Source of the DNA: Candidatus Aenigmatarchaeota archaeon
GTDB taxonomy: Archaea > Aenigmatarchaeota > Aenigmatarchaeia > QMZP01
Assembly (NCBI GenBank): GCA_026397335.1
Contig: JAPLVB010000006.1
Coordinates: forward strand, 1-46,852
DNA: 46,852 nt
Reading direction: 5' to 3'
Numbering within the stretch: position 1 is the stretch's first letter; each line of letters begins with the position of its first letter. Of this stretch, positions 3,401 to 38,450 are shown piece after piece. Under the pieces are notes generated by a model, which saw only the letters and a program-made list of their open reading frames with translations, searched no databases and was not told where the DNA came from. Position numbers and translations under genes: made by a program.

Positions 3401-6400
3401 GTTTGTTACTGATGTGTTGATCCTTATTGGAGTGTCTGTCTTGTCGTTATATATAGCCCTCAGCTTGGAGCCTGCCTGGCTCAGGTTGTGAGGTTGCGGG
3501 GGGTCGCCAAAATCCATTGCTGTGAATGTGACTGTAAGGTTCTCTGAAGAGGAGAAAGGAGATTTCCATTCATCCATTCCCCTGTAAGAAATCTCGATGT
3601 TGTACGTGGAGAGCCCAAAGAAGAAGCTCCCTATGTCAGAGCCCTTGCTGGTGGTCACCCTGGCATCAGCCTGGAATTCCCCGTCCTTGTCCAGGCCTGT
3701 TATGTTAACGACATATGGGTACCAAACCGCCTCCGGGGGCAGCCATTCAGCATACACCCTTGTGCTGTTGGAAACTGAGGTTGCCACAGAATCTGTAGAA
3801 ATTTCGGTAGGCGGCCATCCTGCCATCCATTTTATGCTCTGCAGGGTGGCTGAGGATATGGAAAGCATGTCTCCTGTGGAGGGATCCCTGGCAACCAGGG
3901 CGAACGCGGCTGAGCCTCCTTTTTCAAAAACCGGTCCCATATCCCGGGAGACGAAAAGGGCTGTCCCGTTGTCTGTTATCTTCATGGTTTCCACGTAGAA
4001 GTTCCTTACCTCAAATCCGCCCCAGCCGAAATACGTGTTGTCTGTGTCTGCGAGATCTGTCACTATAAGGTCCATCCCGTACCAACCACTCTGCATCTTC
4101 GGGCTGAGCGGTATTATCGTGATATTGGTGGTCGCGTTCGCAACCATGCCCACGGAAACATTGAAGTCCACCCCTTTGACCATCTCCTTCATGAGCTGGT
4201 CGTTCCTGAGGGAGCCCACGTCCACCACAAGGCCTTCGCAGTCGGTACAGGTGAGGGAGCTTGTTCCCTTGCCCATCTGGCTCATCATGCTTCCCTGGTC
4301 TATGTCCACCACGTTCACCGTGAGCGTCACGCTTTTATTTAGACCCGATATGCACTGGCCTCCTTCCTGGCTGCACTGCGGAGTTGCCCATATCATGTAC
4401 TTCTTGAGTTGGAAGAATGCGTTCCCTATTCCCTCCTCCATTGCTCCATTAACATAAGCCTTGAACTTGAACTTCATGGAAAAGAATCCCTCTGCATCAG
4501 GCGCATTGAAAACAAGGTTGCCGTTCTGGACCGACTCGTTCGCAGAGGCCCTGAAGCTGGCTGTGAAAACGTCCTGGAAATCCGGGAACTCCTTGTACAT
4601 CTCTATTATCTTTGCGCCTGTTATGTTGTTTGCAGGCAGGTCCTCCCTTGTGGAAAGGTCCTTTATCTTGAGCTTTATCTTCATGGTCGTGTTTGGCGCA
4701 AAGAACCAGTAGTCATCCCCTTTGGAGTCCACGGAAGCGCCTTCTGCATAAAACCTCTGTATGCCGAATGTTGATCCTGCCTTCTTTATCTCATTGTTGT
4801 AGTTTATCTGCGCCACTGCCTTATACGTGCCTGTCCTGTTCGGAGCTGCAAAAATTATCACGCACTGCCTCATGACCTCCTGGGGCGGCTGCTCTTCCAT
4901 GGACACTCCGGACATGGCTATTGCCCTTGACAGGTTCATTATAAGCGCTCCTGACACGCTCACTGACATCCCCCTGTCATCCCTCAGCTCCACCAGAGAG
5001 ACAAGCGTCCCGCACTCGTCCGTTCCTGTGGTGCTTCCATTGTCTATGTCTATAAGGCCCATTCCCTCAGGGCCCTTGGACATCATGCCTCCTGCGGATA
5101 TGTTTGAAAGGAAGACCATGAGGGTGACATTATCTGAAGGAGCGAAAGCATTCACCTCTCCGGCCCCGCTCTCTGCCTGGTCTATGAAATGCATGTTCAT
5201 TGCCATGAGCTGCAGGGAAACGGACTCCACTGAGAACCCTGTTATGAATTCCTGGCTGCTGTCCCCGTATCTTCCGACAACCTTGACCTGGTAGTTTCCA
5301 GTGACGCCGCCTATTGAAAAATCATAATAATAGACCCCTGTCTCGCCTTGCGTAAGGCTGTTTGTAGCTGCAGTGCCATTGGGGTAAGTCAGCCTGGCAG
5401 AGCCTGAGGTGAGGTTCACCGCGTTCCCGCTGGCGTCCCTGGAATTCGCATATATCCTTGCAACGGAGTTGGGAGAGAAGGAATATGCTGGGTTGCCGCT
5501 CAGGTCCGTGACCTTTCCTGACAGCTTGAATGACTCCACTGTGAAGTATTCTATTCCTTTGCTGTTGTTGAGGTCTATTGCATACGTGCCTGCAGTGGAA
5601 GGGGCTGTGAAATTGGATATGAAGAATCCCATGCTGTTGGTTGTGTTTGTGATGGTTGCCAGAACTCCTTTGGAGGAGTTCAGGAGCCTTGCCTGCACAT
5701 TCACTCCTGGGACAAAATTCCTGCTGGAATCCTTTGCCATGACTATGAAATTCACAGCAGAACTTGGGGAATATACAGAAGACCCTTTTGGCATCCCTAG
5801 GAATACCCTGTTTCCTGTATTGAACTCTATCTCCCCTATCATGTAGTCCCCGAATTTCTGCCCCTTATGCAGAACCTTTTCCGCGCTTGAGTTCTGCCCG
5901 GTGTCCTCTGTGTCATTATAAAGCTCAAACCTTATGTCATCATCCACGTACAGAGTGTCATAAGTCTGGTTGTAGTTCTGGTCTACAAGGACAAAATGGT
6001 AAAGCCTGTCCAGGGTCAGGTTCCCATAGTGCAGGGTCCCTGATATGGAAAGGTCCCTGAGCTCCGTGAAGTTCCCTCCCATGGAGTTATCTGTTGTTAT
6101 TACTGCGCTCGTATCCACGGGCTTTATGTCCTGCGCATTCATCAGGTGGGCCTCCAGGTAGGTTATCTGGGAAACAACCTCAAAATTCATGAATATGGTT
6201 GACTGCCCGTCCGTTACGCTTGCATTATAGGTTCCGACAGGCACCCCTGAAAGGGATTGGGAGAAAGAGAATATGTTGGAGCCGCTCGTGTTCAGGCTCA
6301 TATTTGTAACGATTATCGGGGTGGAATTTGAGGTTATGAGGGTCATGTTTATCTGGTTCATGTAATTGGTTATGTTTCCTATTACAGACAGGCTCTCGCT

Positions 6401-6517
6401 GGTTGTGTATACCAGCTTGTTTGCATGGGCATAGAAAGAATACGCGCCAGCAGGGGAGGACAGAGCTAATAGTGAAAAAACTAAACAGAGAACCAGAACT
6501 AAACTCTTACCACCCAT
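482..6517 (-). pseudogene. Giant secreted surface/S-layer-like glycoprotein (~2000 aa) interrupted by two frameshifts and one in-frame TAG (ORFs 3233-6517, 1750-3189, 482-1798)
   Basis: Only the first ORF has a signal peptide. All three ORFs share beta-rich, N-x-S/T-rich composition. Frames switch near 3320-3290 and near 1755, with an in-frame TAG at 3277-3279. Confidence 0.7.
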
Positions 6518-6652: not shown

Positions 6653-7042
6653 ATGGCAAAAAAAGCCCAGATGTTCATAATAACAACGCTTTTCCTTATA
6701 GGCCTGATTTTTTCTGTCCAGCAGCTGACTTTTCAATACACAGCCCTGGACTTATCCGCTCCCTTCAGGGAGAACAACATCTATCTTCTCCAGAACACAA
6801 AGGATATAATTAACAAGACCATCAGGACTACACCGGATTGCACTGATTTCGCGGCAAACCTGAGGGAGCTAAAGGATTTCCTTGACAAAAGAATCCCGAG
6901 AGGTGGCTACAGCCTTTCCCTTGGCTACAGGTTGAACTGCACCAACTGGCAAAGTTCTACAAATCCCCCGCTTAACCTTACAATCCAGATAGTTGGAAAG
7001 AATGCGGACACCTCTGCAAGGGTTTATTTGTATCACAAATAA
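6653..7042 (+). CDS. Class III signal peptide (type IV pilin-like) protein
   Basis: N-terminus MAKKAQ-MFIITTLFLIGLIF: K-A-Q motif followed by a hydrophobic helix. Confidence 0.75.
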   Translation: MAKKAQMFIITTLFLIGLIFSVQQLTFQYTALDLSAPFRENNIYLLQNTKDIINKTIRTTPDCTDFAANLRELKDFLDKRIPRGGYSLSLGYRLNCTNWQSSTNPPLNLTIQIVGKNADTSARVYLYHK

Positions 7043-7110
7043 CTGAATGCGGAAATTTTCCATAATCAAAAACCCACCATTTTATAAGCCTGCTGAAACA
7101 ATAACTAAAT

Positions 7111-7719
7111 ATGCCTAAAAGGGGTGCGATAGAGCTCAGCCTCGGTTTCATAGTGGCTGTTGTTTTTGCAGTTGTGCTGCTTAGTCTGGCTATTTTGTGG
7201 CTCCAGGGAATCATAGGAAACATTGGTGGCCTTACTGATGATCTGACGCAGCAGGCGCAGAGCAAGCTACAGGAGACATTCCAAAGCACTCAGAACAATT
7301 TTGCCATATGGCCTGACAGGTACAATCTTGACAGGACTCGAGAGCTCAAGATGTCTGCTGGCATAAAGAATGATGCTGAAGACGGGCAGAACCACCAGTT
7401 CATCGTAAATGTTATACCTGCAGCAGCAAGCAGGGCGCCATGCGCATCCGGCGATATAAACTCATGCACAGGACCTGGAGGAAAATCCCTTAAAGAGTTT
7501 ATGCAAGACTGGGCGTCTTGGGACAGTGAGCCTGGAGTTGTCCAGATAAACAGGGTTGGTTACAGAACAATAAGCGTGAAGGTTCCTGCAAACGCTGTGT
7601 CAGGAACATACATATTCAATGTGATTGCATGCATGGATATTTTTTCTTACACTGAATGCACCCCGCAAACACTTAACTGGGGCGGCAGCGCGCAGCAGCT
7701 TACAGTAACAGTCAAATGA
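7111..7719 (+). CDS. Class III signal peptide (pilin-like) protein
   Basis: MPKRG-AIELSLGFIVAVVFAVVLL; TTTATAAG TATA-like box at 7081. Confidence 0.75.
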   Translation: MPKRGAIELSLGFIVAVVFAVVLLSLAILWLQGIIGNIGGLTDDLTQQAQSKLQETFQSTQNNFAIWPDRYNLDRTRELKMSAGIKNDAEDGQNHQFIVNVIPAAASRAPCASGDINSCTGPGGKSLKEFMQDWASWDSEPGVVQINRVGYRTISVKVPANAVSGTYIFNVIACMDIFSYTECTPQTLNWGGSAQQLTVTVK

Positions 7720-7764
7720 GCTTTTCTGCAGAATAATATATTCCAGCTAACCAAATAGTATTAC

Positions 7765-8247
7765 ATGGACGTGTCTCTCATATTCGGCATTATTTTCACT
7801 ATTATTGTGATGGCAGCGCTTCTTGTTTTCGGATGGGACCAGATTGCCAATCTTTTCGGTTTCGGAGGGGAGGCCCAGACGCTCAGAACCGTAGACAATC
7901 TCAACAAAAAAATAGATTACATTTACCGCAATGCTGAAGGCTCCAGAGCAGAATTCACCCTGGCTTTTCCCAAAGACTACAAACTGTGCTTTTTCAATTC
8001 TTCTAGCCCCACCGCGAAATTCTATTCAGACAGGTCAAGGACATGGGATCCTGACCAGACAACCAGGTTCAGGATAAACCAGAGCGGATTCAACTCATGG
8101 TATTACAGAGGTAATGATGATGCGCAAGGACACGGCTATAAATTTTCTTATCTTGACATCCCCACTGAAAATAATTTTTGTGCGCTGGGCGGAACAAAAC
8201 TTTCTATAGTTAACAGGGGCTATATGGTTGAGGTAGAGCCTGCCTGA
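7765..8247 (+). CDS. Pilin-like membrane-anchored protein (no basic leader)
   Basis: N-terminal hydrophobic helix MDVSLIFGIIFTIIVMAALLVFG, then a small Cys-paired globular domain. Confidence 0.65.
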   Translation: MDVSLIFGIIFTIIVMAALLVFGWDQIANLFGFGGEAQTLRTVDNLNKKIDYIYRNAEGSRAEFTLAFPKDYKLCFFNSSSPTAKFYSDRSRTWDPDQTTRFRINQSGFNSWYYRGNDDAQGHGYKFSYLDIPTENNFCALGGTKLSIVNRGYMVEVEPA

Positions 8248-8263
8248 ACCTGCATGGTGAAAT

Positions 8264-9382
8264 ATGCTTGCCGTACATAGAATCTTCCAGATGATTTTCG
8301 GGATAATTGTCTCATTCACGATTTTGTATTTCCTGATCACATACTCAGGAGATTATGCAGGCGTGCAAAAGGACAAGCAGCGGGCTGAAATACTTGTGAG
8401 CTTCAGCCATGATGTAAGGAGCGTTTACCTGACAGGCATATCCACAAACTTCACCTACTTTTCACGATATGATTTCTCCTCCTGCTTTGTAAATGCAACG
8501 GAAAAGAGCATACCTGAAATAATCTGCCTGGATTCAAGAGTGTCAAGAATCCCCATAGAGACTCCTGTAATTTTCAAGCCAGGTCAGCAGGTTTACATAG
8601 GACGGGATTCTCTTGATTACGGGTGGTGGATTTGCGGATTTGCGGAGGCCATTCCCAGCACCACATTCGTTTTCGCTCCAGAGAATACGGATGAAGCCTG
8701 GGAAGTGATGACAAATATTGTGCAGCACCTGCCTGACACCTCGGATGACTGGAGTGTTGTAAAAGTTACATTCGCTTTCTGCGACGGGCCCCAAATTCTT
8801 TACGTGTGCGGGGGCCGCCCCTGTGACAAGAGTGATTTCCTTTCCATTCTCAGCTCAGGGCCTTTGGGTGCAAGCTTTTCCCCATGCACAGCAGACCTCA
8901 AAGGAAAGAGACTTGTGACCATATCCGGGTCATGCGGCTCAGAGAAAGGCGTCTGCATTAATCCTCCCAATTCCAAGGGTGTCGGGAACGCGTTTGTTGA
9001 GGGCTCCGGGAAAACCTATGTCTATAAAGACCCGCTTGACCTTGTTGCGCTTTCCGTGGGCGGGAGCGAAAAGGATGATTTCGGCAGGACGGAAGCTGAG
9101 AAGATTTATGGGTACAAGAATTCTGTGCTCATGCCAAGGATCTCGCTTGCAGCAGAGGTTATGTCCAAGAGGTCTGTTCTGATTGCAGGAGACATCCCTG
9201 AAGAAACGGGGTGCGGTGCTGTTTACATAGAGCTTTCCCAGGTTCTTGACAGGATTTCACCATCCATGGATTACACAAGCGTTTCGGATATGTACAACCT
9301 GAACGATAATCTGAACAAAGCGAAAGAGATTTACCAGAGGCTTGTTGATTTGGGATGTGAGAGGAGCGAATATGGCGTATAA
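8264..9382 (+). CDS. Membrane-anchored Cys-rich hypothetical protein (pilin cluster)
   Basis: 372-aa ORF with an N-terminal TM helix and multiple Cys, operonic spacing. Confidence 0.7.
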   Translation: MLAVHRIFQMIFGIIVSFTILYFLITYSGDYAGVQKDKQRAEILVSFSHDVRSVYLTGISTNFTYFSRYDFSSCFVNATEKSIPEIICLDSRVSRIPIETPVIFKPGQQVYIGRDSLDYGWWICGFAEAIPSTTFVFAPENTDEAWEVMTNIVQHLPDTSDDWSVVKVTFAFCDGPQILYVCGGRPCDKSDFLSILSSGPLGASFSPCTADLKGKRLVTISGSCGSEKGVCINPPNSKGVGNAFVEGSGKTYVYKDPLDLVALSVGGSEKDDFGRTEAEKIYGYKNSVLMPRISLAAEVMSKRSVLIAGDIPEETGCGAVYIELSQVLDRISPSMDYTSVSDMYNLNDNLNKAKEIYQRLVDLGCERSEYGV

Positions 9383-9857
9383 AGGCCAGTCAGAAATAAT
9401 GGAATACATCCTTATGGTGGTTTTCATAGTTGCAGCAATAATAGGAATAATAATCTTCCTTACATGGTGGAATCTCCAGCAGTTCCAGATGGACGCATTC
9501 AAGAACAGGCAGGACAGGATTATCGGGATAGGGCAGTATATGATGGGTGATTACATGTTCACAAACGGGGATTCCGTGTTTGATGATGCCAAGCTAACTG
9601 CAATAAATGCAAGCATGAATTGTGATGATTTGCAGAAGATTCTCGGGACAAACTGGTATGTGAAAATAAAGGCCCTGGATATGGAAGGAGAGAAACCGTG
9701 CAGGTGGAATGATTACCCAAATTGCAATGTCTGGAGCATATGCGGTTACAAGGAGAATGCAAAGGACCGGTTTGGCCAGAATTTCCCTGTGAATGTTTAC
9801 AGGAAGGTTTCGGACAAGACGGCTTTGGGAGTCCTGTATGTGGAGGTTTACTCATGA
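9372..9857 (+). CDS. Class III signal peptide (pilin-like) protein
   Basis: GAGGAG RBS at 9361 and ATG at 9372: MAYKGQ-SEIMEYILMVVFIVAAII. Confidence 0.75.
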   Translation: MAYKGQSEIMEYILMVVFIVAAIIGIIIFLTWWNLQQFQMDAFKNRQDRIIGIGQYMMGDYMFTNGDSVFDDAKLTAINASMNCDDLQKILGTNWYVKIKALDMEGEKPCRWNDYPNCNVWSICGYKENAKDRFGQNFPVNVYRKVSDKTALGVLYVEVYS

Positions 9858-10492
9858 AATCACAGTGCATAAATGATTGTTGTGATAGAAGGTCTTATTC
9901 CGCAGGAAGTCGCAAAGCGACTTCATTCTCCAATCCACCTTCCATTAAACAATTGGAAAATAGGCCTAATCTGAAGGCGCAAAGCAGCATGCTCCTGATA
10001 ATAATTGTAATCATGATATTTGTAGGCATGGTTGTTTTCCTTCTGGGGATTGCAAGCACGGTAGGCGGAAATGAATTCACAGGCCTTTACGTGAACAACC
10101 TTTTGCTTTCTGTTATGAGGACGGATACAGGATATACGGATTCCAAGTGCAAGCTTGTTTCCGACCTTGTCTTTTGCGCATATTTCACGCCTGAATGGCA
10201 GTGCGCACAGGGTGTGCCCAACTGCCTCGAGCTGGCCAATAATACAATAACAAGGTACATGACAATCTTTGGAAACCAGACAAAGAGCATGAAATACCTT
10301 TTCACAGTAACTCCGGCATTTGTTGCGCGGGATGTTTCAGGCGAGCCAATAAGCCTTGACATGGGTGACAAAGCCCTCAAAAAATCCAAGGCAGAGAGCC
10401 TGAAAATTTATTCCCACCCTCTTGTTATAAGCAAGACTGTTGGTTCTAACCAGTACACCCTGAAAATCCAGCTCATAGTTTCAAAAAAGTAA
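9854..10492 (+). CDS. Class III signal peptide (pilin-like) protein with an unusually long, palindrome-encoded leader
   Basis: GGAGGT RBS and ATGA overlap with the upstream stop. About 40 aa of hydrophilic leader precede LKAQ-SSMLLIIIVIMIF. Confidence 0.7.
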   Translation: MKSQCINDCCDRRSYSAGSRKATSFSNPPSIKQLENRPNLKAQSSMLLIIIVIMIFVGMVVFLLGIASTVGGNEFTGLYVNNLLLSVMRTDTGYTDSKCKLVSDLVFCAYFTPEWQCAQGVPNCLELANNTITRYMTIFGNQTKSMKYLFTVTPAFVARDVSGEPISLDMGDKALKKSKAESLKIYSHPLVISKTVGSNQYTLKIQLIVSKK

Positions 10493-10548
10493 ACTGATAT
10501 TGCAGGAATTCCTCATATTATATATACCAACACTGACAAATATTTAGT

Positions 10549-12384
10549 ATGGCTAAAGGCCAGACTGAGATTGTTGTGGTTTTGGGGATTGTGATTGTTG
10601 CTATTGTTGTTATTCTATATGCCGTTCCAAATATTCTTCCTTCTGATGTGCCTGCGGGAATAAAGCCAAAATATGATGCTGTGAAAGCCTCTTTTGAGAG
10701 CCTTGTCATGGATGGCGCGCAAAATACCATTAGAAAGCTCTCTCTTTATGGTGGATATCTTGACAACTCCTCTTTCCAGATGGGTTCTGTGACTTTTCTT
10801 GGGAAGGAAGTCCCGTACTGGCAGTACAATGGCCAAGTGAAATACCCGAACGTGAAGGATAATTTCATCCAGGGCCTGAGGGATTACCTGGCAAATAACA
10901 AAGATACTGTTGCTGAAAGCCTGAAAATGAGCGGAGTTGCTTTGGGAGATCCGCAGGTCTCTGCAAATTTCCTGAACAATAAAATTGTGATAACTGTAAA
11001 CATGCCTGCCACAATAGACGGGTATAAGATATCCAAGCCGTATGCTGTTGAAGTTCAGACAAGACTGAATGAGATAGATGAGTTCGCAAAGGGGCTTGCA
11101 TCCTATGATGCGAGCAATAGGCCGTTCGAATACTATACACTCTCCTCAATGATGATAAGCCCTATAGAACAGGATGTGCACACAGTTCCGATGTTCATAT
11201 TCCTTACAGAATGTGGAGATTATGTCTTCAAGAGCTGGTGGGATTTGAAGCCTGCGATGGAGAATGTGATAAAGACCACGCTCGCCCAAACCTATATGCC
11301 GGGGAAAGCCCCCCTGAACACCATGATGAGTTCTGGTTCTCCCAAATACAGCCTTGTTCCTGTAAACGGGAAAAGATACGAGAGTCTCGATGTCGCCTTC
11401 CATCTGCCTGATGATTTCAGTCTCACGCAGGCGGACTTCCAGTTCTCTCCTGACCCCATAATGGTTACGTCCAAAATCATTCCCATGGTGGGTCAGTGTC
11501 AATCAGACCCAGTTTACGTGAACTATTATGTTTCCTATCCTGCGATAGTAAGGGTGAAGGACCCCCTTACCCAGAACGTCTTCCAGTTCGCCCTTCATGT
11601 TTTCATAAAGGACAACAAGCCAGGAGTCTGGACCGAATCAGGGTATGAAAGTGATGTCCAGAAGCAGATATGCTCCAACCCGCAGTGTGCGGCTGACATC
11701 TCCCTGAAAGACAGCACAGGTAAACCGGTTGACTTCGCTTCCATAACTTTCATGGGATGTGATCTGGGAAGGACAAATTCACAAGGAGTTTTAAGAGGGC
11801 CTGCCCCATGCGGCCTGGGCCCGCTCCAGATATACAAGCAGGGTTATGATGCTTACAGCAGGATGGAATCCTCAGACCGCCTGGCCGGCCTGACAATCTC
11901 GCTTGTGAAGACCCCTGCAATAAATGCACATTTCTATGAGGTGATAATCCAGAACCTTTCCCTTAACGGCAAATATGACATCTCGCAGAACGCGGTGAAC
12001 GTCATAGAAAGCGGCCATATTGTTTACATGAATTTCTATGACATGGCAAGCATCAAGTCTTACCAGATGGGCTACAATATGAGGGGCGGGCAGATTAATG
12101 GAATGCCTGCCGGGTATTATGTTATCGGAGGGACTTTGCTCTCCAAGGGCAATGAGCTTGGCGCATTCATTATCAATTATACATTATCCGAGGGTCTTGA
12201 CGGGAAGGACCTGTACATATATCTTCCAAACGAGCTTGGCTATCAAGGAATAACAGACACAGCCCAAAAGGCCGGTGCAACAGTCACCCTGACTAATGTG
12301 TTAATAAAATGCGGTCTCGGTCCGGTCTCTCTCTCGGAAATAAAGAACTTCAAAGGGTGTTCGGTGGGTTACAATGAAGTTTAA
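10549..12384 (+). CDS. Large class III signal peptide (pilin-like) protein, 611 aa
   Basis: MAKGQ-TEIVVVLGIVIVAIVVILY, followed by a long extracellular region with paired Cys. Confidence 0.75.
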   Translation: MAKGQTEIVVVLGIVIVAIVVILYAVPNILPSDVPAGIKPKYDAVKASFESLVMDGAQNTIRKLSLYGGYLDNSSFQMGSVTFLGKEVPYWQYNGQVKYPNVKDNFIQGLRDYLANNKDTVAESLKMSGVALGDPQVSANFLNNKIVITVNMPATIDGYKISKPYAVEVQTRLNEIDEFAKGLASYDASNRPFEYYTLSSMMISPIEQDVHTVPMFIFLTECGDYVFKSWWDLKPAMENVIKTTLAQTYMPGKAPLNTMMSSGSPKYSLVPVNGKRYESLDVAFHLPDDFSLTQADFQFSPDPIMVTSKIIPMVGQCQSDPVYVNYYVSYPAIVRVKDPLTQNVFQFALHVFIKDNKPGVWTESGYESDVQKQICSNPQCAADISLKDSTGKPVDFASITFMGCDLGRTNSQGVLRGPAPCGLGPLQIYKQGYDAYSRMESSDRLAGLTISLVKTPAINAHFYEVIIQNLSLNGKYDISQNAVNVIESGHIVYMNFYDMASIKSYQMGYNMRGGQINGMPAGYYVIGGTLLSKGNELGAFIINYTLSEGLDGKDLYIYLPNELGYQGITDTAQKAGATVTLTNVLIKCGLGPVSLSEIKNFKGCSVGYNEV

Positions 12385-15300
12385 ACTAATCGCGATAGAG
12401 GTGTTTGCAATATTCGTCTCATATCTAGTTTTCTCTCTAACTGTGACTTCTGCGACTGATGTGAGCATAATGTTCAACGGCCAGATTCAAGAAACGGCAA
12501 AATACGAGCAGGAAAAGCTTGTTAACATGCTCATAACAATGCACCACGAATCAAATGACATCACATGGACAAACGTGAAGCTTGTTGTTAACCTGAACAG
12601 CGCGAGCCTTGCAAACAGCATAAAGAAGATATACCTTTACAAGTGCAGGTCACAGACTCCCACGGAATGTGTGCGCTCCGCCCCCCAAGTATTTGACAAT
12701 TATGTGGACACAGAGCTTCTCTGGAAGGACATCTCGGAGAAGACCACCGCAGCCCAATACCCCCAGATAGCAAACCTCCTTTTCATTGTGAAGCTGGAGG
12801 ATACTAACAAGAAGGAGAACTGGGTGGGATTCTTCACCCAGACCAAACGAACGAGTTACAACACATTTGACACCACCCAGCTCTCTATCCAAGGGATTGA
12901 GCTTCATGCAAAATCCCTTTACCTTGTGGAGCCCATAAAGGCCTACATAGAGAACAAGATGATGATACCGTTCAAATGGGCAACCAAAGTCGTTTTCTCC
13001 GGTGCGAACCCGCTCTATGGGATAGGCGCCTCCGGCCAGGAAGCAGACTCCCACAATTTCCAGACAGCTGTTGTTCCTGTGAACGAGATAACAAGCATAA
13101 ACAAGGATTTCTATTTTGTTTTTCCAAAGATAAGTTCCGGTATTGCAAACCCGATTGTCCTGAACCTAAACCCCTCATTCAGCTGCGGAAACGGGATTTG
13201 CGAATCAGACATAGGAGAGACTGCAGGCTCTTGCTGTTATGACTGCGGCTGCGCTACAGTCCAGTACTGTGATACAGCCTCAAACATAAACCTGAGCACA
13301 TGTAAAGCCGATAATATGGCTCTTTCTGTTATCTCAGCAAACACAGAGCCAATCTCAGACTGTGCCAGGGGATTCAGTGCAAACATATCAGTCCGTGTGA
13401 GCAACCCTCCTGTAAGCCTTAGCTCACAGATATCAGGGACTGTGAAGCTTAACAATACAGTTTATAATGTGATGTGCTCAGGCAGCTCAGGCTCATATGA
13501 ATGCACAATCCCGCTTACCTCAAGCATAAAATGCGGTGAAGGCTCATATGTAATCGGCCCCGGGATTCTAAATCTTACAGCCAGCTACAAGGACGGCCCA
13601 AATGCAGCTACCAAATCCCTCAGCACCTCCTTCTCCGGAGTGGCCGTGAACTATGACTGCAAATGCCAGGAAGGCAGTTATTGCGACTCGATAAAGAAGA
13701 CCTGCCAGTCAGAAGGTGCAATCACCCTTGGCATAACAAGGATTACCTCCTATCTTGACAATTATAACCCAGGAGACAGGATATACCTTAGCGCAAAGAT
13801 ATTCAATCCTCCCGCAGGCCTTGTTCTTGTTGACAAGAGCGCAATCATGAACCTCACGAATGGCCAGGTCTCTCCAGGCACGCCAGACTGCTCTCCACCC
13901 AGTCCGCAGTTCGAGTACAACTGCTCAATACCTTTCCAGATTTCTGGCTACACAAATGAAAAGGCATATACATTCAGCCCGAACACGCTTTCTTTCACAA
14001 TAACCTACAATGACGGCCCGCTTGCAAAAACCAAAACCATTTCCGCTCCTTTCGGCCCCGTGAGCATACCCTCCCGCCTGTGCGGGGACAACCAGTGCAA
14101 CATGGATGAGTCACAGGAGAACTGCTGCCTGGACTGCGGCTGCCCGAGCGCGAACCAGTTCTGTGACAAGGTGGCTGGCTGCATAGACCAGGATTCTGTC
14201 TCTACCTCTGTGAGCTCCATCAACCCTGTGAACTTCACGGACTGTAGGCAGGAGCACACAGTCTCCATTGGCGTCACCGTGAATAACGCTCCCACGGACA
14301 TGAGCCTTGACTACTCAGCTTACTTGCAGAATGGCCTGGTAAAGGGCTGGAACCTGCACTGCGAGAAGTCCTCTGTCAATCTGTTCAACTGCACTCTTGT
14401 TATCCCCCCGCTCGAGAGCGAGGGCTGCTCCCTCCCCTACAAGACCATAACCGGCAACTCCATAAACATGACAATCTCCTTCCCCAACGGGAAGAGCAAG
14501 CAGATAACCAAGCACCTTAACGCTCCCTTCCAGGACATTTTCGTGATTCCTGTATATCACTGCGGCGATGGCACATGCGAATCCTCGCTTGGCGAAAGCC
14601 CATCAAACTGCTGCTATGACTGCTCGTGCAAGGACTCCCCCGCCTTTGGGGAAAACTTCTACTGCGATTTTGACCCGCAAACCTTCCTAGGCGGATGCCT
14701 CCCGAAGGCTAACATCTTGCTTGTAATAGACTCTCCCACAGCTCCTGTCTCCCTTTCCAGCTGCGAGCTCACGAACAGCGTGAACATAAAGGCCCACATA
14801 ACCAACCAGCCCAAGAACGCAAGGCCTGAATACTTTTACGCCTCCCTGAACGGCTCCAATGCGGACATGATACACTGCGACCAGCAGCAGGTCACGCAGG
14901 GCTCCAATTATACCTTCAACTGCACCTTAATGATTCCCAAAATCTACCAGTGCTCCCAAGGCCAGACCTACACGTTTGACCAAAACTCCCTTTCCGTCCT
15001 GCTAAGCTATGAGAACGGCAAGCAAAAAACTGAGACCCAGACTCTCTCAGCCTCCCTTCCAACAATCACAGTCAGGCAGGGCATCAGAACCCTTTATGAT
15101 ATCACGCAGGAAGGGATAAGGAAGATGCAATCCAAGCTTAAGGACACCATGCAGACTGCACGGGACATGCTTGATGCATTCAAGAGCTGCATGGAGACCG
15201 TGAAGACCATAGGATACATGACTCTTATAGCTGCCATTGCTGGCGGAATATGGGCCGGCACAAGCAGCCCCACAACAACCACTACCTCTACGCCGCAAGC

Positions 15301-16555
15301 CATCACGTCAACCACACAAAGCAAAATTGCTACAGGCGTGAGCACGGCTGTCCAGATCGGCCAGCTTGGGACCAGCCTCATGTCTGCATACGGGAAGATG
15401 TGCGAATACCTGAACACCATGTACCAGATGGGCCTGCAGGTCCAGCAGCTGGAGATGAAGATGATACAGATGGACATGTGCATGGAGAGCAACCAGCACA
15501 TGCTGGACATAGGCCAGTGCAATGGAAGGGAGCAGTCCTGCTTCCAGTCCATGGTTTCCTGCGTCAACTTCAATGACATCCAGTCCTGGGCAAGCCAGCT
15601 CAGCACAACAATACAGAGCGGCAACAACGCCCTGGCAGGCATGAATACTGCCCTCACAAATGCGGGAACCATAGCCGGGACGCTTGGTGGAAATGGGTAT
15701 GGAATAATGCAGATAGGATGCGGCGGCAAGGAGATACCTAACGGCGGAAAATGCTGTGGATCCAATGGCCCATCAGGTTCGGTCACATCTGCGACAGGCG
15801 TAGGTTATACTTCGTGCTCATATATTGATCTTGAAATAAGAACTGTTCAGAACACGCAATATTGTTCAGGAAATTACATGATTCTTGTAGATGGCAGCAG
15901 AGTGACTACAAATGTAATGAAAGGCGACAATATCCAGTTCTTTAATGACAAGACGCATAGCTTCGCGCTTTATTGTGATTCGAACAAGAACGGCATCATA
16001 GATTCAAATGAGTTGGCCATAGGCAGCGGCCTCCAGGCAACCCTTCTTAGGCCAAATGTTTACAATGCCGCAAGCCAGCCCTGTGAGTGTACCGGAAGTG
16101 CTGGTAATGCTTCTACATCTGCTGGCTGTTGTTATATTAGCACAAGCAATTGCCAGGAGGCGGTGTATTTGGATGCATGCAATAATCTTAAAGGTACGCT
16201 GAAACCGGATGTTTCCTGCGCCGCAGTTCAAGGATGTCCCCAATATAATGGAACTGCCAGCGTGACGGCAACCTTGACTGCAGATAAAACTCTGATTAAG
16301 CCGGGTGATATAGTGACTTTCAATTGTAATGGTATTGCAAGCGGAGGTGCAACCATCAACAATTATGTGCTGGATTATGGCGACGGTGGGGACTATTCCT
16401 CTACAACACCGATAATAGGTTCCTACAGGCAATATGACTGCTCAAACAAGAGTTCGTATGCAACTACTTGCACAGTAAAAGACACGACAAAAACACCAGT
16501 TTTAACTGATACTAAAACAAATACAATTCAATGTGATTATTCTGGTTTGAGTTAA
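12374..16555 (+). CDS. Giant secreted Cys-repeat protein with an internal hydrophobic helical hairpin and a C-terminal PKD-like domain
   Basis: Signal peptide; CG(N/D)xxC...CCxDCxC modules at 13184, 14081 and 14561 (partial at 13658); hydrophobic segment IGYMTLIAAIAGGIWAG; C-terminal VTFNC...YVLDYGDG PKD-like motif. Confidence 0.8.
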   Translation: MKFKLIAIEVFAIFVSYLVFSLTVTSATDVSIMFNGQIQETAKYEQEKLVNMLITMHHESNDITWTNVKLVVNLNSASLANSIKKIYLYKCRSQTPTECVRSAPQVFDNYVDTELLWKDISEKTTAAQYPQIANLLFIVKLEDTNKKENWVGFFTQTKRTSYNTFDTTQLSIQGIELHAKSLYLVEPIKAYIENKMMIPFKWATKVVFSGANPLYGIGASGQEADSHNFQTAVVPVNEITSINKDFYFVFPKISSGIANPIVLNLNPSFSCGNGICESDIGETAGSCCYDCGCATVQYCDTASNINLSTCKADNMALSVISANTEPISDCARGFSANISVRVSNPPVSLSSQISGTVKLNNTVYNVMCSGSSGSYECTIPLTSSIKCGEGSYVIGPGILNLTASYKDGPNAATKSLSTSFSGVAVNYDCKCQEGSYCDSIKKTCQSEGAITLGITRITSYLDNYNPGDRIYLSAKIFNPPAGLVLVDKSAIMNLTNGQVSPGTPDCSPPSPQFEYNCSIPFQISGYTNEKAYTFSPNTLSFTITYNDGPLAKTKTISAPFGPVSIPSRLCGDNQCNMDESQENCCLDCGCPSANQFCDKVAGCIDQDSVSTSVSSINPVNFTDCRQEHTVSIGVTVNNAPTDMSLDYSAYLQNGLVKGWNLHCEKSSVNLFNCTLVIPPLESEGCSLPYKTITGNSINMTISFPNGKSKQITKHLNAPFQDIFVIPVYHCGDGTCESSLGESPSNCCYDCSCKDSPAFGENFYCDFDPQTFLGGCLPKANILLVIDSPTAPVSLSSCELTNSVNIKAHITNQPKNARPEYFYASLNGSNADMIHCDQQQVTQGSNYTFNCTLMIPKIYQCSQGQTYTFDQNSLSVLLSYENGKQKTETQTLSASLPTITVRQGIRTLYDITQEGIRKMQSKLKDTMQTARDMLDAFKSCMETVKTIGYMTLIAAIAGGIWAGTSSPTTTTTSTPQAITSTTQSKIATGVSTAVQIGQLGTSLMSAYGKMCEYLNTMYQMGLQVQQLEMKMIQMDMCMESNQHMLDIGQCNGREQSCFQSMVSCVNFNDIQSWASQLSTTIQSGNNALAGMNTALTNAGTIAGTLGGNGYGIMQIGCGGKEIPNGGKCCGSNGPSGSVTSATGVGYTSCSYIDLEIRTVQNTQYCSGNYMILVDGSRVTTNVMKGDNIQFFNDKTHSFALYCDSNKNGIIDSNELAIGSGLQATLLRPNVYNAASQPCECTGSAGNASTSAGCCYISTSNCQEAVYLDACNNLKGTLKPDVSCAAVQGCPQYNGTASVTATLTADKTLIKPGDIVTFNCNGIASGGATINNYVLDYGDGGDYSSTTPIIGSYRQYDCSNKSSYATTCTVKDTTKTPVLTDTKTNTIQCDYSGLS

Positions 16556-17316
16556 TCTATTATTTGATATAATTCTTTTCCTACGGGTATTTGACCTATT
16601 CTTTTGAGAGCTTTAAGTCCTTCTTGATCTTTTTCTTCAAGAATTTTTGTGGTATTCGGACCTGGTGCACATCTAACCACCGTCCTCTCCTTCCCATCAA
16701 TCACCATCTTCATCACATCGGGACCGTGTTTTTCATTCTGCAACCTGCTTCCTCTGGGAGGGGTTCTTCTATTTATCAGATATCCTGCCATATCGCTCCC
16801 CACTTCATCCAGCATGGGATCTGGAAACATCCTTGAATCCCTCTTGTATGTTTTTCCGCCTGCCAAAGACTCGTTATCTTCGTATTGTATGTTCAGTTCT
16901 ATAGAATCGAACGGAAGGTCCATATAACCTGTGCGCATCTGGGGATCCTTGTATTTGTAATTGAAAGTTCCTCTGATTATTATCGTGTCATCAGTCACTT
17001 TGTCAGACCTTGTGATAACTTTTACTCCCTTGTTTCTCAGGATTGTTGCCAGCTTCATGGGTATTTGCCTTTCGACATTCTGGTAAAGACCTTGAGGCAA
17101 ATCTCCAGCAACCTCAAAATTATCTATATACACGCTCACTCCATCCTCCGCCCACGCCTCCATCTGCTTGAGGAATCCTTCCCCGAAAATTGCAGCTCCT
17201 GCCAATCCTGCGGCGCCTTTCAGGAATTCCCTTCTTGAGATCCCTTCCGAGAGGTAGGCCTGGTTGTCGAGCTGTTCCCCTTTCAGATAGTTTTCTGTTG
17301 GATTCTTAGTGGACAT
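16552..17316 (-). CDS. Tat-signal exported hypothetical protein
   Basis: ISRREFLKGAAGLAGAAIFG twin-arginine motif and an AWA cleavage site. Confidence 0.7.
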   Translation of the reverse strand: MSTKNPTENYLKGEQLDNQAYLSEGISRREFLKGAAGLAGAAIFGEGFLKQMEAWAEDGVSVYIDNFEVAGDLPQGLYQNVERQIPMKLATILRNKGVKVITRSDKVTDDTIIIRGTFNYKYKDPQMRTGYMDLPFDSIELNIQYEDNESLAGGKTYKRDSRMFPDPMLDEVGSDMAGYLINRRTPPRGSRLQNEKHGPDVMKMVIDGKERTVVRCAPGPNTTKILEEKDQEGLKALKRIGQIPVGKELYQIID

Positions 17317-17431: not shown

Positions 17432-18859
17432 ATGAAATTATTTTTCTTGGGATTTGTTTTGAGCCTGGTTCTCCTAACAGGCACAGCCCATGCCCTTCGC
17501 CTAACAGACGGCCTTTTCTTCACAGTCGCTCCCAACTCCACCGGGGAGGTGTATTTCATCCTCCCTGATGATGTGGGCGCGGGACCTGGAAAGGCTGATT
17601 ATTTCATAACCACTATGACAAACTGGCCTGTGGACCTGACCGAGCAGACTGTGACTACAGAGGAGAACAACACAGCAATAATCCCGATAAAATTCTACTC
17701 ATCAGGCAGGAAAGAAGGAGACTGCTCCAATTACACTGTTACCATTTCTGCCCCGGGCCTAAACCTCTCCAGAACATGGAAAGGAGGGGTTTGCCTCTCC
17801 AAGTATGCTGATGTTGACATCTCCAAATCAGGCGGGGACGCGAAAAGCGTCCTTAACAATAATGTGGATCTCTTTAGCGCGGGATTCAGGACTTACACAA
17901 AGAGTGCCAAGCCAGGCGAGACCGTTCAGGTAGAGGTCCTCATACAATCGCAGGCAAGCCTTATGATAGACGTCACCCTCCAGTCCCAGGCCTTTCTGGA
18001 CAAAAGGAGCTTTGTGATCCAGACAAGCCAGAACTCTGAATACAAAGGCCTGATTGTTAATGCGAGTGCCGCTTCCTCAGGGAATTATGACATAATCCTG
18101 ATAGCAAAAGCCAGAAACTGCTCCCTGACCTCGTGCACAAAGCAGAGCTCCATGAAGTTGGTGGTTTCTGGAACAGAGTCACAGGAAGGATTCGCGGTTT
18201 CCGTCTTCCCGGAGAACCTTGCCATAAAGAAGCTGGAGCCGGTAACATACTCATTCACGCTTCAGAACAACTATAAGGATGAGGTTAATTTTATCGTGGA
18301 TGTGGAGAAGCCGCTGGATCTTGACAGCTCCTTCGTGCTCGGGAATTTCACTGTTCCGGGCCTCTCGGAGAGGACTGAGAATTTCACTGTCACCCCGCAT
18401 AACTCCACAGGATTCTATGAGATAAAGGTCCGCGCCAGCATGAATGATGTCGAGAAGATTATTTCTGCATACCTCTCAACGAATGAGATGGTTTCTGATG
18501 TTTACAGGAATGCGGATGATGTGCTGGCTGGCGCGAATTCGTCTGTCCGGGCGGTTGTGGACAGTAACGTGAGGAACTGGTACAGCTCCTACTCAAAAAA
18601 CGAGTACGGCTCAAACATTACAGGATATGCAAACCTGCAGGAGACGCTGGATGCTGCAAGGAAGCAGAACGCCTCATCTGTCCAGCCCAAGCCGCCTGCC
18701 AACAATACATATGTCCCTGCTGATGGCACAGAATCTCAGCCCAATCCTTTGCAGTGGATTGTTATACCCATAGCTCTGGGTGGGGCGGTTCTTGTGGTCC
18801 TTATGCTTTTCAGAAGGAAGAAAGATAAAGGTGAAGAATTCCTGGAACTATCCAGATAA
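17432..18859 (+). CDS. Surface protein with signal peptide, beta-rich (Ig-like) domains and a C-terminal TM anchor
   Basis: N-terminal signal ending AHA; C-terminal WIVIPIALGGAVLVVLMLF-RRKK. Confidence 0.8.
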   Translation: MKLFFLGFVLSLVLLTGTAHALRLTDGLFFTVAPNSTGEVYFILPDDVGAGPGKADYFITTMTNWPVDLTEQTVTTEENNTAIIPIKFYSSGRKEGDCSNYTVTISAPGLNLSRTWKGGVCLSKYADVDISKSGGDAKSVLNNNVDLFSAGFRTYTKSAKPGETVQVEVLIQSQASLMIDVTLQSQAFLDKRSFVIQTSQNSEYKGLIVNASAASSGNYDIILIAKARNCSLTSCTKQSSMKLVVSGTESQEGFAVSVFPENLAIKKLEPVTYSFTLQNNYKDEVNFIVDVEKPLDLDSSFVLGNFTVPGLSERTENFTVTPHNSTGFYEIKVRASMNDVEKIISAYLSTNEMVSDVYRNADDVLAGANSSVRAVVDSNVRNWYSSYSKNEYGSNITGYANLQETLDAARKQNASSVQPKPPANNTYVPADGTESQPNPLQWIVIPIALGGAVLVVLMLFRRKKDKGEEFLELSR

Positions 18860-18880: not shown

Positions 18881-20521
18881 TTAGTAGAAATCCTCATCTG
18901 AGAATTCGTCCTCTTCTTTCTCGTCACCGCCCTCTTCAAACTCTTCCTCTCCACCGCCGCCTTTCTTCTTTATGAATTTCTTGAACACAATAAATCCCAC
19001 AACAGCAGCGGCTGCCACACCCCCTCCTATCAGGGCTATGGTTGTTATGTCAAATCCGCCAGTTGGTGACGGTTCGGTGCCTCCTGTGCATATCCCGTCT
19101 GAGCAGGTTTCTCCTGCTCCTGTGCAGTCAGAACTTGTGCAGCATTGCTGGCAGCTCCCGGAGCAGCATACCCCCGAACTGCAGTCTGAGTTTGTCGTGC
19201 ATCCTATTGGAGTAGATTTCTCGCATATGTTGCTGTAAGTGCACGTCTCATCTGTATTGCAGTCAGAACTGCTGCAGCACTCCCCGCCTGTTATGCATGA
19301 GCCGCTGCAGCATATTCCTCCTGTGCAGCTGGCCATATCGCTCTTGCCTTCGCACTCTCCCGGAATAACTGCTGATGTGCATTTGAAATCAGAAGAACAT
19401 GTTTTTCCTGAAGGGCAGTCAGAACTGGAGCAGCATTCTGCCCCTCTTGTCCTGCATATTCCTCCGCAGCATATCCCGCCCAGGCAAAGCGCCATGTCAC
19501 TCTTGCCCTCGCAGGATGCTGGATTTATTGCGCCAATCACGCTGATTCTCAATTCAACTGGTATCTGCTTGATTTCTGTTGGGCCTGACAAGAGAGTCGC
19601 GAACGTGGAGATGTTTGTGCTTGACTGTATATTGTTGAGAGTGACCGTCATGTACGTGCTCTCATTCGGCTCAAGGGAGGTTTTCTTGGGGGTTATGGTC
19701 AGATAACTGGAAATCTGCTGCGGAACAGAAATGCTCAGGGCTGTGAGATTATCTGTTCCCAAATTCGTGATTTTGAAAGTCTCAATCTTGAACTCCTGGT
19801 TTGGATTTATCACAGGGCTGTAGGCTATGCTGTCTGCCTTTACATCAGGAGATCCTGTTCCCCCGCCACCGCCACCAACAACCACCCTTGCAACCCCTCC
19901 GCCGAAATCAGTGGGGCTGGTTGCAGAGAAAGCAATGTAATACTCCCCATTTGAAAGGGTTATGTTGGTGCTGTAGCCGTAAATCATGTCGTTTCTTATC
20001 GTTGTTCCGCTCTTCACCATATTGAGCCCGGCAGTATCATAAACCTTGTAGGAAATAGTACCTGTTATAGAACCTCCTGCCCAGGCTTTTATGTAGACAA
20101 TGTTTCCTGATGTGGTTATTTGGCTGCTTATCGGGATTCCTCCCACGCTCACATTAACAGATGTGGTTTGATTCTGATTGTTCTGGTTTACGGCAATAAC
20201 ATCAGTTTCATAGGGAACCCCGTAAGACGGTCCCGGGAACATGTTGGGGCCACATGTATTCGGGATGTCTGTGTTAGAAAAATAGCACACATACTTGTTC
20301 CCTACGAAATTAATGCTCCAATACCCGTATTGTACACCATAGACAATCCATTTCACGCTCACGGATTCCCCGGAGGATGCATGCGGGTCCGCGATCATGA
20401 TGAAGCTCGAGTTGACAGAAATCTTGTCCGGTATGAAAGTCACGTCAGGCGGCTGTATTGCGCTTGCACTCGGAACAGAAAGAAAAATCACAGCCAGCGC
20501 TGCAATCCAGAATGGCTTCAT
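18881..20521 (-). CDS. Type I membrane surface protein with Cys-rich tandem repeats and an acidic cytoplasmic tail
   Basis: Signal peptide, repeats CEGKSDMAxCxGGICC...CCSSSDC, TM helix, KKKGGGGEEEFEE tail. Confidence 0.8.
   Translation of the reverse strand: MKPFWIAALAVIFLSVPSASAIQPPDVTFIPDKISVNSSFIMIADPHASSGESVSVKWIVYGVQYGYWSINFVGNKYVCYFSNTDIPNTCGPNMFPGPSYGVPYETDVIAVNQNNQNQTTSVNVSVGGIPISSQITTSGNIVYIKAWAGGSITGTISYKVYDTAGLNMVKSGTTIRNDMIYGYSTNITLSNGEYYIAFSATSPTDFGGGVARVVVGGGGGGTGSPDVKADSIAYSPVINPNQEFKIETFKITNLGTDNLTALSISVPQQISSYLTITPKKTSLEPNESTYMTVTLNNIQSSTNISTFATLLSGPTEIKQIPVELRISVIGAINPASCEGKSDMALCLGGICCGGICRTRGAECCSSSDCPSGKTCSSDFKCTSAVIPGECEGKSDMASCTGGICCSGSCITGGECCSSSDCNTDETCTYSNICEKSTPIGCTTNSDCSSGVCCSGSCQQCCTSSDCTGAGETCSDGICTGGTEPSPTGGFDITTIALIGGGVAAAAVVGFIVFKKFIKKKGGGGEEEFEEGGDEKEEDEFSDEDFY
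19085..19515 (-). repeat. Three tandem Cys-rich protein repeats (two closely similar)
   Basis: CEGKSDMALCLGGICCGGIC..ECCSSSDC, CEGKSDMASCTGGICCSGSC..ECCSSSDC and CTTNSDCSSGVCCSGSC..CCTSSDC. Confidence 0.8.
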
Positions 20522-37979: not shown

Positions 37980-38450
37980 TCAAAATTCCTGTGTCAGAAT
38001 GAATGTACTGCAAACCCCGTTATGAATTTTTATCTCCGTGGGTGTGCCTGCCAGATTTTCGGTTATGTTGGCCTCTATTACAGCAGACTGCCCTGGCTTG
38101 AGAGGGTTGTCCGGGGTTATCCCGTTCTTTGCAGGGAAGAACTTGTACCCCGCACCTTGGATATAAATCTGGAAGGAGAAGCTGTGCAGGTTTATCTGAC
38201 CTGTGTTCATTATTTTGGCTTTTAGCCACTCACTGGACCCTGAGAAATCCCAGTCCACCCCTGAATTGCCGAATGAGGAATCAAAATCATATGCTGTGCT
38301 CTGGCATGTAATCTGGTTGTCCGCATTTCCTCCTGTATTATTCACTTGCCTGCCCGCAAAGTTTATTGCCCAGGGTCCCACAAGCCCTGCTATCACGACT
38401 ATTAACCCTATCACGATTATTGTTGACAGCAGGACTGATACAGCTTTCAT
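37980..38450 (-). CDS. Archaeal type IV pilin-like protein
   Basis: MKA-VSVLLSTIIVIGLIVVIAGLV class III signal; NTGQINL and LKPGQ pilin-like motifs. Confidence 0.8.
   Translation of the reverse strand: MKAVSVLLSTIIVIGLIVVIAGLVGPWAINFAGRQVNNTGGNADNQITCQSTAYDFDSSFGNSGVDWDFSGSSEWLKAKIMNTGQINLHSFSFQIYIQGAGYKFFPAKNGITPDNPLKPGQSAVIEANITENLAGTPTEIKIHNGVCSTFILTQEF

Follow-up and report, generated by a model that had tools for sequence, protein, structure and literature searches.

What is the function of an archaeal operon in which a row of pilin-like genes ends in the gene for a giant cysteine-rich protein? We analysed such an arrangement computationally in a 46,852-nucleotide stretch of DNA (hereafter the window) from a Candidatus Aenigmatarchaeota archaeon (GenBank assembly GCA_026397335.1, contig JAPLVB010000006.1, positions 1 to 46,852 of the forward strand), whose genome is 1.05 Mb and 92% complete. 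An initial annotation, made by a model from the letters alone, had proposed that eight genes (g1 to g8) encode a pilin complex with a giant adhesin or membrane-inserting protein in a member of the DPANN archaea, and the DPANN identity was correct. We conclude that g1-g8 likely make up the tip (priming) complex, analogous to PilVWX-PilY1, with which a type IV pilus would grip a host, and we place the probability of this reading at roughly 0.55.

Seven pilin-like genes precede a giant exported protein

The eight open reading frames (ORFs) lie on the plus strand between 6653 and 16555 (Table 1), and the gaps between them are, in order from g1 to g8, 68, 45, 16, -11, -4, 56 and -11 nucleotides. 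The coordinates thus agree with the co-oriented, tightly packed and partly overlapping arrangement that had been described. Five of the genes (g1, g2, g5, g6 and g7) encode a class III motif followed by a hydrophobic helix, as had been claimed, and these motifs were kept in the orthologues. The two genes that had been listed with bare N-terminal helices, g3 and g4, indeed start directly with the helix and encode leaderless pilin-like proteins, and the giant last gene does carry cysteine repeats, with 68 cysteines and three Cys modules. A loose genome-wide scan for class III signals picked out 68 candidates over 1.05 Mb, though a good part of these were spurious ORFs. Since five of the 68 fall within the seven consecutive genes g1-g7, and the gene order is kept across families, the clustering exceeds chance. 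No Pfam family was found for any of g1-g8, and NCBIfam gave nothing near its cut-offs.

We examined the residue at the mature +1 position. It was Gln in all homologues of g1 (8/8), g5 (16/16), g6 (17/17) and g7 (47/47), an invariance that is partly by construction, as these sets were cut at a Gln motif. The g1 gene adjoins the cluster only in some relatives. In g2 the +1 residue was mostly Ala, and in g3 and g4 it was Met. Met1 of g3 corresponds to the mature +1 position, and the orthologues in loci L014, L019 and L092 retain an MKA/M leader (the slash marks the cleavage site). We infer that the leader of g3 and g4 was lost because the mature +1 residue is itself Met. Profile comparison matched g3 with g4 (probability 93%, E 4e-7) and with g2 (probability 86%), and therefore all seven genes g1-g7 can be considered pilin-like. 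One g3 orthologue also matched DUF7289 just below the cut-off. Leaderless pilin-like proteins of this kind represent a class overlooked by motif-based finders.

Two further points concern the small genes. An in-frame TTG at 9953 offers an alternative start for g6, giving a protein of about 179 residues with a leader of normal short length. The head domain of g2 had only 2 N-glycosylation motifs against 18±4 expected, which suggests a buried or packing role, while g1 and g3-g6 showed no such avoidance.

Other pilin-like genes were seen outside the operon. A lone g3 paralogue, 54% identical, lies at G000:C32:7314-7799. Within the window, positions 37980-39160 on the minus strand hold two further class III genes (156 and 237 amino acids (aa)), the longer of which gave a sub-threshold DUF7289 match and also matches the g3 profile. 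At G000:C35:3835-5765 (L055) lies the gene for a class III protein that is at least 643 aa long; it has no Pfam family, and two stretches within it are hydrophobic and rich in Gly/Ala.

g7 models as a large GspK/PilX-like tip pilin

The initial annotation had anticipated that pilin folds would be predicted, and a pilin-like fold was indeed predicted, at a moderate score, for g7, the one pilin-like protein folded. The AlphaFold2 model of g7 (predicted local distance difference test score, pLDDT, 88.6) runs from a helix at residues 2-25 through a break and a second helix at 32-62, the broken N-terminal helix of the pilin type, to an alpha/beta domain and then beta-sandwiches. Residues 30-167 matched the type II secretion system (T2SS) pseudopilin GspK (3ci0_K; Z 6.8, root-mean-square deviation (rmsd) 3.3, 87 aligned), a score below Z 8 and so in the range that the tool calls common. 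GspK was the only chain of the type IV pilin family among the 50 structural matches listed. Further along, residues 374-455 resembled CnaB/carboxypeptidase-regulatory domains (9hfj_A; Z 10.8, rmsd 2.3, 79 aligned). The Glu at +5 is absent from g7; GspK and PilX are also without it. On this predicted structure, g7 models as a large tip pilin of the GspK/PilX kind.

Other searches were less informative. Foldseek with g7 gave no type IV pilin among the matches listed. The ESM Atlas returned unnamed clusters of Aenigmatarchaeota and Nanobdellota only (0.96-0.98), which we take as a lead for wider DPANN homology.

We also predicted the complex of g7 with the N-domain of g8. It scored 0.56 (runs of 0.68, 0.56 and 0.00) against 0.00 for the best control, with a contact agreement of at least 0% and a partner pLDDT of at least 82. 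In the calibration, 116 of 157 solved complexes and 2 of 215 mismatches passed this mark; scores of 0.60 or less took in only 18 of the 157 solved complexes and both of the mismatches. The tool grades the result as weak support. Binding of g7 to the g8 N-domain is thus predicted with weak support.

The g7-g8 pair is conserved across one order

Conserved synteny, which had been expected of a dedicated system, was found. We detected g7 in 87 of 91 genomes of one Aenigmatarchaeota order and g4, essentially single copy, in 82 of the 91. A phylum-wide g7 profile hit 81 of 310 genomes; 69 of these belong to the one order, and most of the others were weak. Synteny was mapped at 41 loci, 40 of them around g7 matches picked for diversity and contig size, and the last being L012. 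The order g1-g8 was complete in 7 of the 41, g2/g3-g8 was kept in several more, and many loci were partial. The tightest association was that of g7 with g8: a gene of the g8 family follows g7 in 49 of 52 cases (six of the 49 partners are short, about 450 aa, and were tied in by BLAST clustering only), and the other three cases are tandem g7 copies. Duplication of the g7-g8 pair is common, and contig C30 of this genome holds one such copy.

The g8 family is narrow, because the profile of residues 776-1112 found about 150 representatives among 1.84 billion proteins. A g8 scan against genome contigs returned one locus.

The second pair on C30 (L054, G000:C30:9452-15051; 723 and 1145 aa) lies beside alanyl-tRNA synthetase and ribosomal genes, and its g8 copy has a more hydrophobic hairpin, Cys at the tip and almost no tail. 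In family f6 (L035, L036, L040, L048, L049 and L051) the gene after a further g7 copy encodes about 450 aa and is not a giant; it often adjoins the gene for a large protein, in one case with a weak match to peptidase C25. In another order (L097-L099), distant g7 homologues (E 1e-41 to 2e-13) precede unrelated giant proteins, one of which has several Gly-rich hydrophobic helices mid-chain; these contigs are short and may be contaminated. By eye the L097 giant resembled the g8 hairpin, but the profile did not support this.

g8 combines a stalk, a predicted helical hairpin and a variable tail

From its N terminus, g8 comprises a conserved domain, a stalk, a helical module and a hypervariable tail (Table 1). 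The Cys modules lie at residues 271, 570 and 730, and the fourth immunoglobulin (Ig)-like repeat of the stalk was modelled as Ig. The tail was alignable in only 2 of 11 orthologues, and in some orthologues it carries PKD, Big, CARDB, LNR or LRR domains. We scanned 44 g8 homologues by family search (10 full proteins and 34 post-stalk regions) and found no toxin or enzyme domain. A polymorphic toxin was therefore rejected, as the scanned proteins had adhesion-type domains or nothing. The PilY1 beta-propeller (PF05567) likewise gave no Pfam match in g8 or in the 44 homologues and tails.

These results bear on whether g1-g7 could be a pseudopilus for secretion or uptake, either a T2SS-like piston or a competence-like tip, with g8 as its cargo or substrate binder. 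The closest pilin fold of g7 is that of T2SS GspK, and the signal of g8 is of the Sec type and not class III, both of which fit. The 44 homologues without an enzyme or toxin domain do not, no DNA-binding domain was seen, and the strict one-to-one coupling of g7 with g8 suits a structural partner better than a cargo. We consider a pseudopilus improbable.

The model of residues 776-1112 (pLDDT 81), the part used in the structure searches of g8, contains an Ig domain, two long helices (57 and 65 residues) with a disordered joining loop, and a third helix. In the hairpin formed by the two long helices, a variable loop without Cys joins a marginally hydrophobic helix (945-963) to an amphipathic return helix. 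The conserved Cys939 and Cys1010 sit at the base of the hairpin, flanking the tip, and may form a disulfide. In some orthologues the Cys-free loop has grown, to 332 residues in L024:9731-13237 and 275 in L044:2801-8056; such expanded inserts could be delivered domains.

We compared this module with known structures. With VIA-align, the matches listed were generic coiled coils, among them BAR (Z 11.2), colicin Ia (Z 9.6, rmsd 3.6, 152 aligned) and IpaB (Z 8.7, rmsd 4.6, 120 aligned). All helical matches fall below the tool's Z 13 for helical bundles, and since the scores also tie with BAR, tektin-like and SMC coils, they do not show homology to pore formers. Foldseek against PDB and viral libraries gave mainly Ig matches and no fusogen among the matches listed, and the ESM Atlas gave no usable match. 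In PDB sequence searches with five alignments, the matches to ubiquitin, TIM-barrel and HA2 proteins were repeats or compositional. Of the membrane-inserting giant in the initial annotation, a candidate membrane-interacting module (the hairpin) stands, and the modelled part, which is Ig and alpha-helical, matched no fusogen specifically.

A fusexin/HAP2-like or viral-type fusogen that merges archaeal and host membranes was nevertheless weighed. A cysteine-flanked hydrophobic segment in long helices recalls class I fusion loops, and profile searches gave matches to haemagglutinin HA2, although non-significant (E 0.06-0.09). DPANN cells also form cytoplasmic bridges from proteins described as unknown (PMC11420986). 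The HA2 matches, however, span the coiled-coil stretch only, and the part that was modelled and searched (residues 776-1112) is Ig plus generic helices, with every helical match under Z 13. On this part of g8, a fusogen is very unlikely.

The hairpin and tail avoid glycosylation motifs

The genome encodes AglB, and we counted N-X-S/T motifs (sequons) along g8 in 30 full-length representatives, picked from the roughly 150 profile matches for coverage of the whole profile. Sequons were strongly depleted in the N-domain (13 observed, 78±8 expected), the helical bundle (4 against 43±6) and the tail (13 against 94±8, with none in 21 of 30 tails), while the stalk showed no avoidance (242 against 218±13). 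Local shuffling in 12 orthologues, a set that partly overlaps the 30, gave the same picture: 4 against 31 in the N-domain, 3 against 16 in the bundle, 10 against 43 in the tail and 108 against 94 in the stalk. Control motifs were not depleted in the tail or N-domain, and the reversed motif was slightly low in the bundle (31 against 42). Cytoplasmic proteins were neutral (63 against 72±8), and other surface proteins were enriched. We infer that the g8 tail, although exported, is under selection to remain free of glycans. This speaks against a plain single-pass anchor and agrees with close docking or with transit across an envelope; a single pass with a cytoplasmic tail does not fit either, because the tail is Cys-rich, PKD/Ig-bearing and sequon-avoiding.

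Whether the hairpin spans a membrane was assessed from insertion free energies (dG, on the Hessa scale) in 25 orthologues, one of 26 rows having been dropped as it lacked the cysteine. Helix 1 had a median of +1.7 and was at or below 0 in 8 of 25, against -3.8 for the true anchors of the neighbouring gene g9. The return helix had a median of +8.0 and was never at or below 0 (0/25), that is, it is not membrane-spanning by itself. Between the flanking cysteines the 25 orthologues had 0 Cys and 0 sequons in 1671 residues. There was no positive-inside bias, with 1.1 Lys/Arg after helix 1 against 3.35 after the g9 anchors.

These numbers are what a surface scaffold without a long pilus has to be judged by. 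In such a scaffold the hairpin would fix g8 to the archaeon's own membrane, the hairpin loop lying on the cytoplasmic side, and the pilin-like proteins would be membrane-anchored or short-pseudopilus partners that display or organise g8, in the manner of a bindosome. The inter-cysteine stretch free of Cys and sequons and the 275- and 332-residue Cys-free loops would fit a cytoplasmic loop, helix 1 reaches 0 or below in a third of the orthologues (8/25) and goes down to -6.5 in paralogues, no motor genes lie nearby, and g9 is a true membrane-anchored neighbour. Against this, the return helix is never anchor-like, helix 1 falls well short of real anchors, the positive-inside bias is missing, and the second-copy paralogues carry Cys inside the tip. 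We regard the scaffold as the main rival reading, possible but doubtful, and the pseudopilus and the classical fusogen as less likely than it.

A sister operon carries peptidoglycan hydrolases

A second operon in the genome, on contig C49 (L053, G000:C49:295-4397), has pilin-like genes fused to SLT and M23 domains. Comparing it with the window operon by single sequences gave helix similarity only, and homology appeared with profiles. The profiles of C49 relatives are collinear with the window operon, with probabilities of 88% for g3, 92% for g5 and 96% for g7, and g5 is homologous to the third gene of the C49 operon. One gene of this operon was found in 36 of 91 genomes. We mapped 21 C49-type loci (20 of those 36, picked on contig size, and C49 itself), scanning 50 of the 55 listed proteins of at least 220 aa. 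M23 was found in 15 loci, SLT in the second slot in 11, and at least one wall enzyme in 16, the wall domains being M23, SLT, VanY or PG-binding. A paralogous operon with hydrolase-bearing pilins points to a bacterial host or prey.

Filament machinery is encoded elsewhere in the genome

The initial annotation had noted that assembly ATPase, TadC and prepilin peptidase are missing from the window and had suggested locating them elsewhere in the genome. The absence holds: none of the 42 window proteins matched a secretion ATPase, TadC or A24 peptidase in a Pfam scan. Other contigs of the genome carry three FlaI/PilB-type ATPase genes, six matches to TadC and a single A24 peptidase gene (on C7). 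Two platform genes come after one of the ATPase genes. None of the three ATPases reaches the FlaI cut-off, and NCBIfam names neither an EppA-type peptidase nor an ATPase of the system 1 clade. PF04021 had no match in the window and its only match in the genome on C33. A motor scattered from its pilins is reported to be usual in Nanobdellati, many of which encode system-1-type pilins (PMC13705601), and divergent DPANN dark-matter proteins near FlaI/TadC have been predicted as pilins (PMC6393860).

A model for the tip complex

Taken as a tip complex, the operon would work as follows. The A24 peptidase would clip g1, g2 and g5-g7, with g3 and g4 needing no clipping, and the small pilins would stack beneath g7, which would act like GspK/PilX. 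Sec would export g8, whose glycan-free N-domain would dock on g7, as PilY1 does on PilX with the polarity reversed, and the glycosylated Ig/Cys stalk would serve as a spacer. The variable tail would then recognise a partner cell and bring the weakly hydrophobic hairpin against its envelope. The motor encoded elsewhere would assemble the complex, and the duplicated g7-g8 pairs and the C49-type operon may be alternative tips for the same motors.

Several observations weigh against this model. At the level of g7, the GspK match is modest as noted, a gp25-like protein scores higher on the same region (Z 7.9), and the best pilin match in a PDB sequence search had E 0.11; PDB searches with the g3 and g5 alignments gave no meaningful match, and the fold modelling of the pilin-like set covers g7 alone. 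One of the three g7-g8 complex runs scored 0.00, and the runs have no guaranteed common contacts. Homology to the C49 operon is weak in the g4 slot (20%) and the g6 slot (48%). In family f6 and in two genomes of f1, the g7-g8 pair stands away from g2-g6 and is duplicated without them, so that it may act alone. The 8 of 25 orthologues in which helix 1 is anchor-like, the more so in the second-copy paralogues, fit anchoring in the cell's own membrane. Because related sequences are not independent, the significance of the sequon counts is inflated, although there is little homology among the tails; in helices, moreover, sequons are disfavoured in any case. Finally, no major pilin or specific ATPase is tied to the operon, and we know of no host for Aenigmatarchaeota.

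The tip complex could have a further role. Membrane insertion by g8 is possible on the modelled hairpin. More tentatively, and as an unlikely rather than a favoured extension, g8 may be a membrane inserter delivered by the pilus: with g8 docked on g7, the tail would bind a probably bacterial host, and the cysteine-flanked hairpin would enter the host membrane and form a pore or cytoplasmic bridge after the M23/SLT sister tip has opened the wall. The need to enter or cross the host envelope would then explain why the hairpin and tail are kept glycan-free. If true, this would be a two-tip type IV pilus machine that breaches and inserts, and it would be a candidate for the proteins that build DPANN attachment organelles and that PMC11420986 states to be unknown.

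The operon is near-universal in one order, and it gives a pilin-adhesin pair and a 200-residue hairpin module as concrete candidates. The variable g8 tails could serve as host-finding probes, and the homology to a wall-cutting pilin operon would link attachment with attack on bacteria across domains. We found no description of the operon in the literature, in a search that left subscription papers mostly outside and with tables S4/S5 of PMC13705601 possibly listing these pilins.

Genes around the operon

The gene g9, the conserved ninth member of the cluster, has 24 family members and was present at 20 loci, including the window, usually directly 3' of g8. In the window the two are separated by one ORF on the opposite strand (16552-17316, minus), which encodes 254 aa with a twin-arginine signal; in most relatives g8 and g9 are adjacent. 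Convergent with g9 is a gene for a 546-aa membrane-anchored surface protein with Cys-rich repeats (18881-20521, minus), which recurs in nine family f1 loci including the window. On the other side, positions 482-6517 on the minus strand hold three overlapping or close MG2/Ig-like ORFs of 1094, 479 and 438 aa. The first two cluster with one ORF of more than 1742 aa in L013 and may be a split giant gene or an assembly frameshift.

Table 1. Positions in the window of the operon genes, the segments of g8 and the downstream gene g9 (a slash marks the class III cleavage site)
Feature	Position	Strand	Description
g1	6653..7042	+	129 aa, class III KKA/QMF, small pilin-like
g2	7111..7719	+	202 aa, class III KRG/AIE, pilin-like
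g3	7765..8247	+	160 aa, leaderless pilin-like
g4	8264..9382	+	372 aa, leaderless pilin-like, Cys-rich head
g5	9372..9857	+	161 aa, class III YKG/QSE, conserved Glu at +6
g6	9854..10492	+	212 aa from ATG overlapping g5 stop, class III LKA/QSS
g7	10549..12384	+	611 aa, class III AKG/QTE, no Glu at +5
g8	12374..16555	+	1393 aa, Sec-type signal, 68 Cys, giant exported protein
g8 N-domain, residues 28-268	12455..13177	+	Conserved; candidate g7 docking domain
g8 stalk, residues 269-905	13178..15088	+	Alternation of Cys modules and four Ig-like repeats, with 12 N-X-S/T motifs
g8 helical module, residues 907-1104	15092..15685	+	Two long antiparallel helices and a third helix
g8 hypervariable Cys-rich tail	15704..16552	+	PKD, Big, CARDB or LRR domains in orthologues
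g9	17432..18859	+	475 aa, Sec signal and C-terminal membrane anchor

Comparison with known systems

Peptidoglycan hydrolases of DPANN archaea have been published (Strock et al. 2025, PMC12352652; Vigneron et al. 2022, PMC9723730), and the C49 operon resembles them in encoding SLT and M23 domains. The word "pilin" is absent from the main text of the first paper and "pili" from that of the second. The C49 enzymes differ in sitting behind pilin-type N-termini, in an operon homologous to that of the window, and the window operon itself is without an enzyme domain.

The helical module of g8, as modelled, shares with colicin Ia, IpaB/SipB and ClyA-type pore formers a long coiled-coil hairpin, marginally hydrophobic Gly/Ala-rich helices and the lack of a positive-inside bias. 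It differs from these families in that the main g8 orthologues have just one clearly hydrophobic helix.

When we compared the operon with the Epd pilus of Methanococcus maripaludis (archaeal type IV filament system 1), we observed that both have the +1 Gln, here in g1, g5, g6 and g7, which is required for EppA (PMC4390842). Unlike the Epd cluster, the locus has no peptidase, ATPase or platform gene and no PF04021 match, and the portions of the literature compared mention no giant hairpin protein for Epd.

The bacterial tips encoded by fimU-pilVWX-pilY1 and the GspI/J/K tip of the T2SS are comparable in layout. In them, too, successive minor pilins lead up to a large pilin that lacks Glu+5, and the first domain of g7 resembles GspK in the model. 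As in PilY1 tips, the next gene encodes a large, Cys-rich protein exported by Sec, of which one end is conserved and the other variable. PilX-PilY1 tip complexes occur in several gene clusters in bacteria (PMC13190605), and here too there are several alternative clusters per genome. The differences are that two of the pilins are leaderless, that g7 has extra beta-sandwich domains, that in g8 conservation is at the N terminus and variability at the C terminus, and that g8 has an Ig/Cys stalk and a helical hairpin and no match to the beta-propeller family. The operon thus belongs neither with PilY1 nor with the Epd cluster, and it would work like a minor-pilin/tip-adhesin set.

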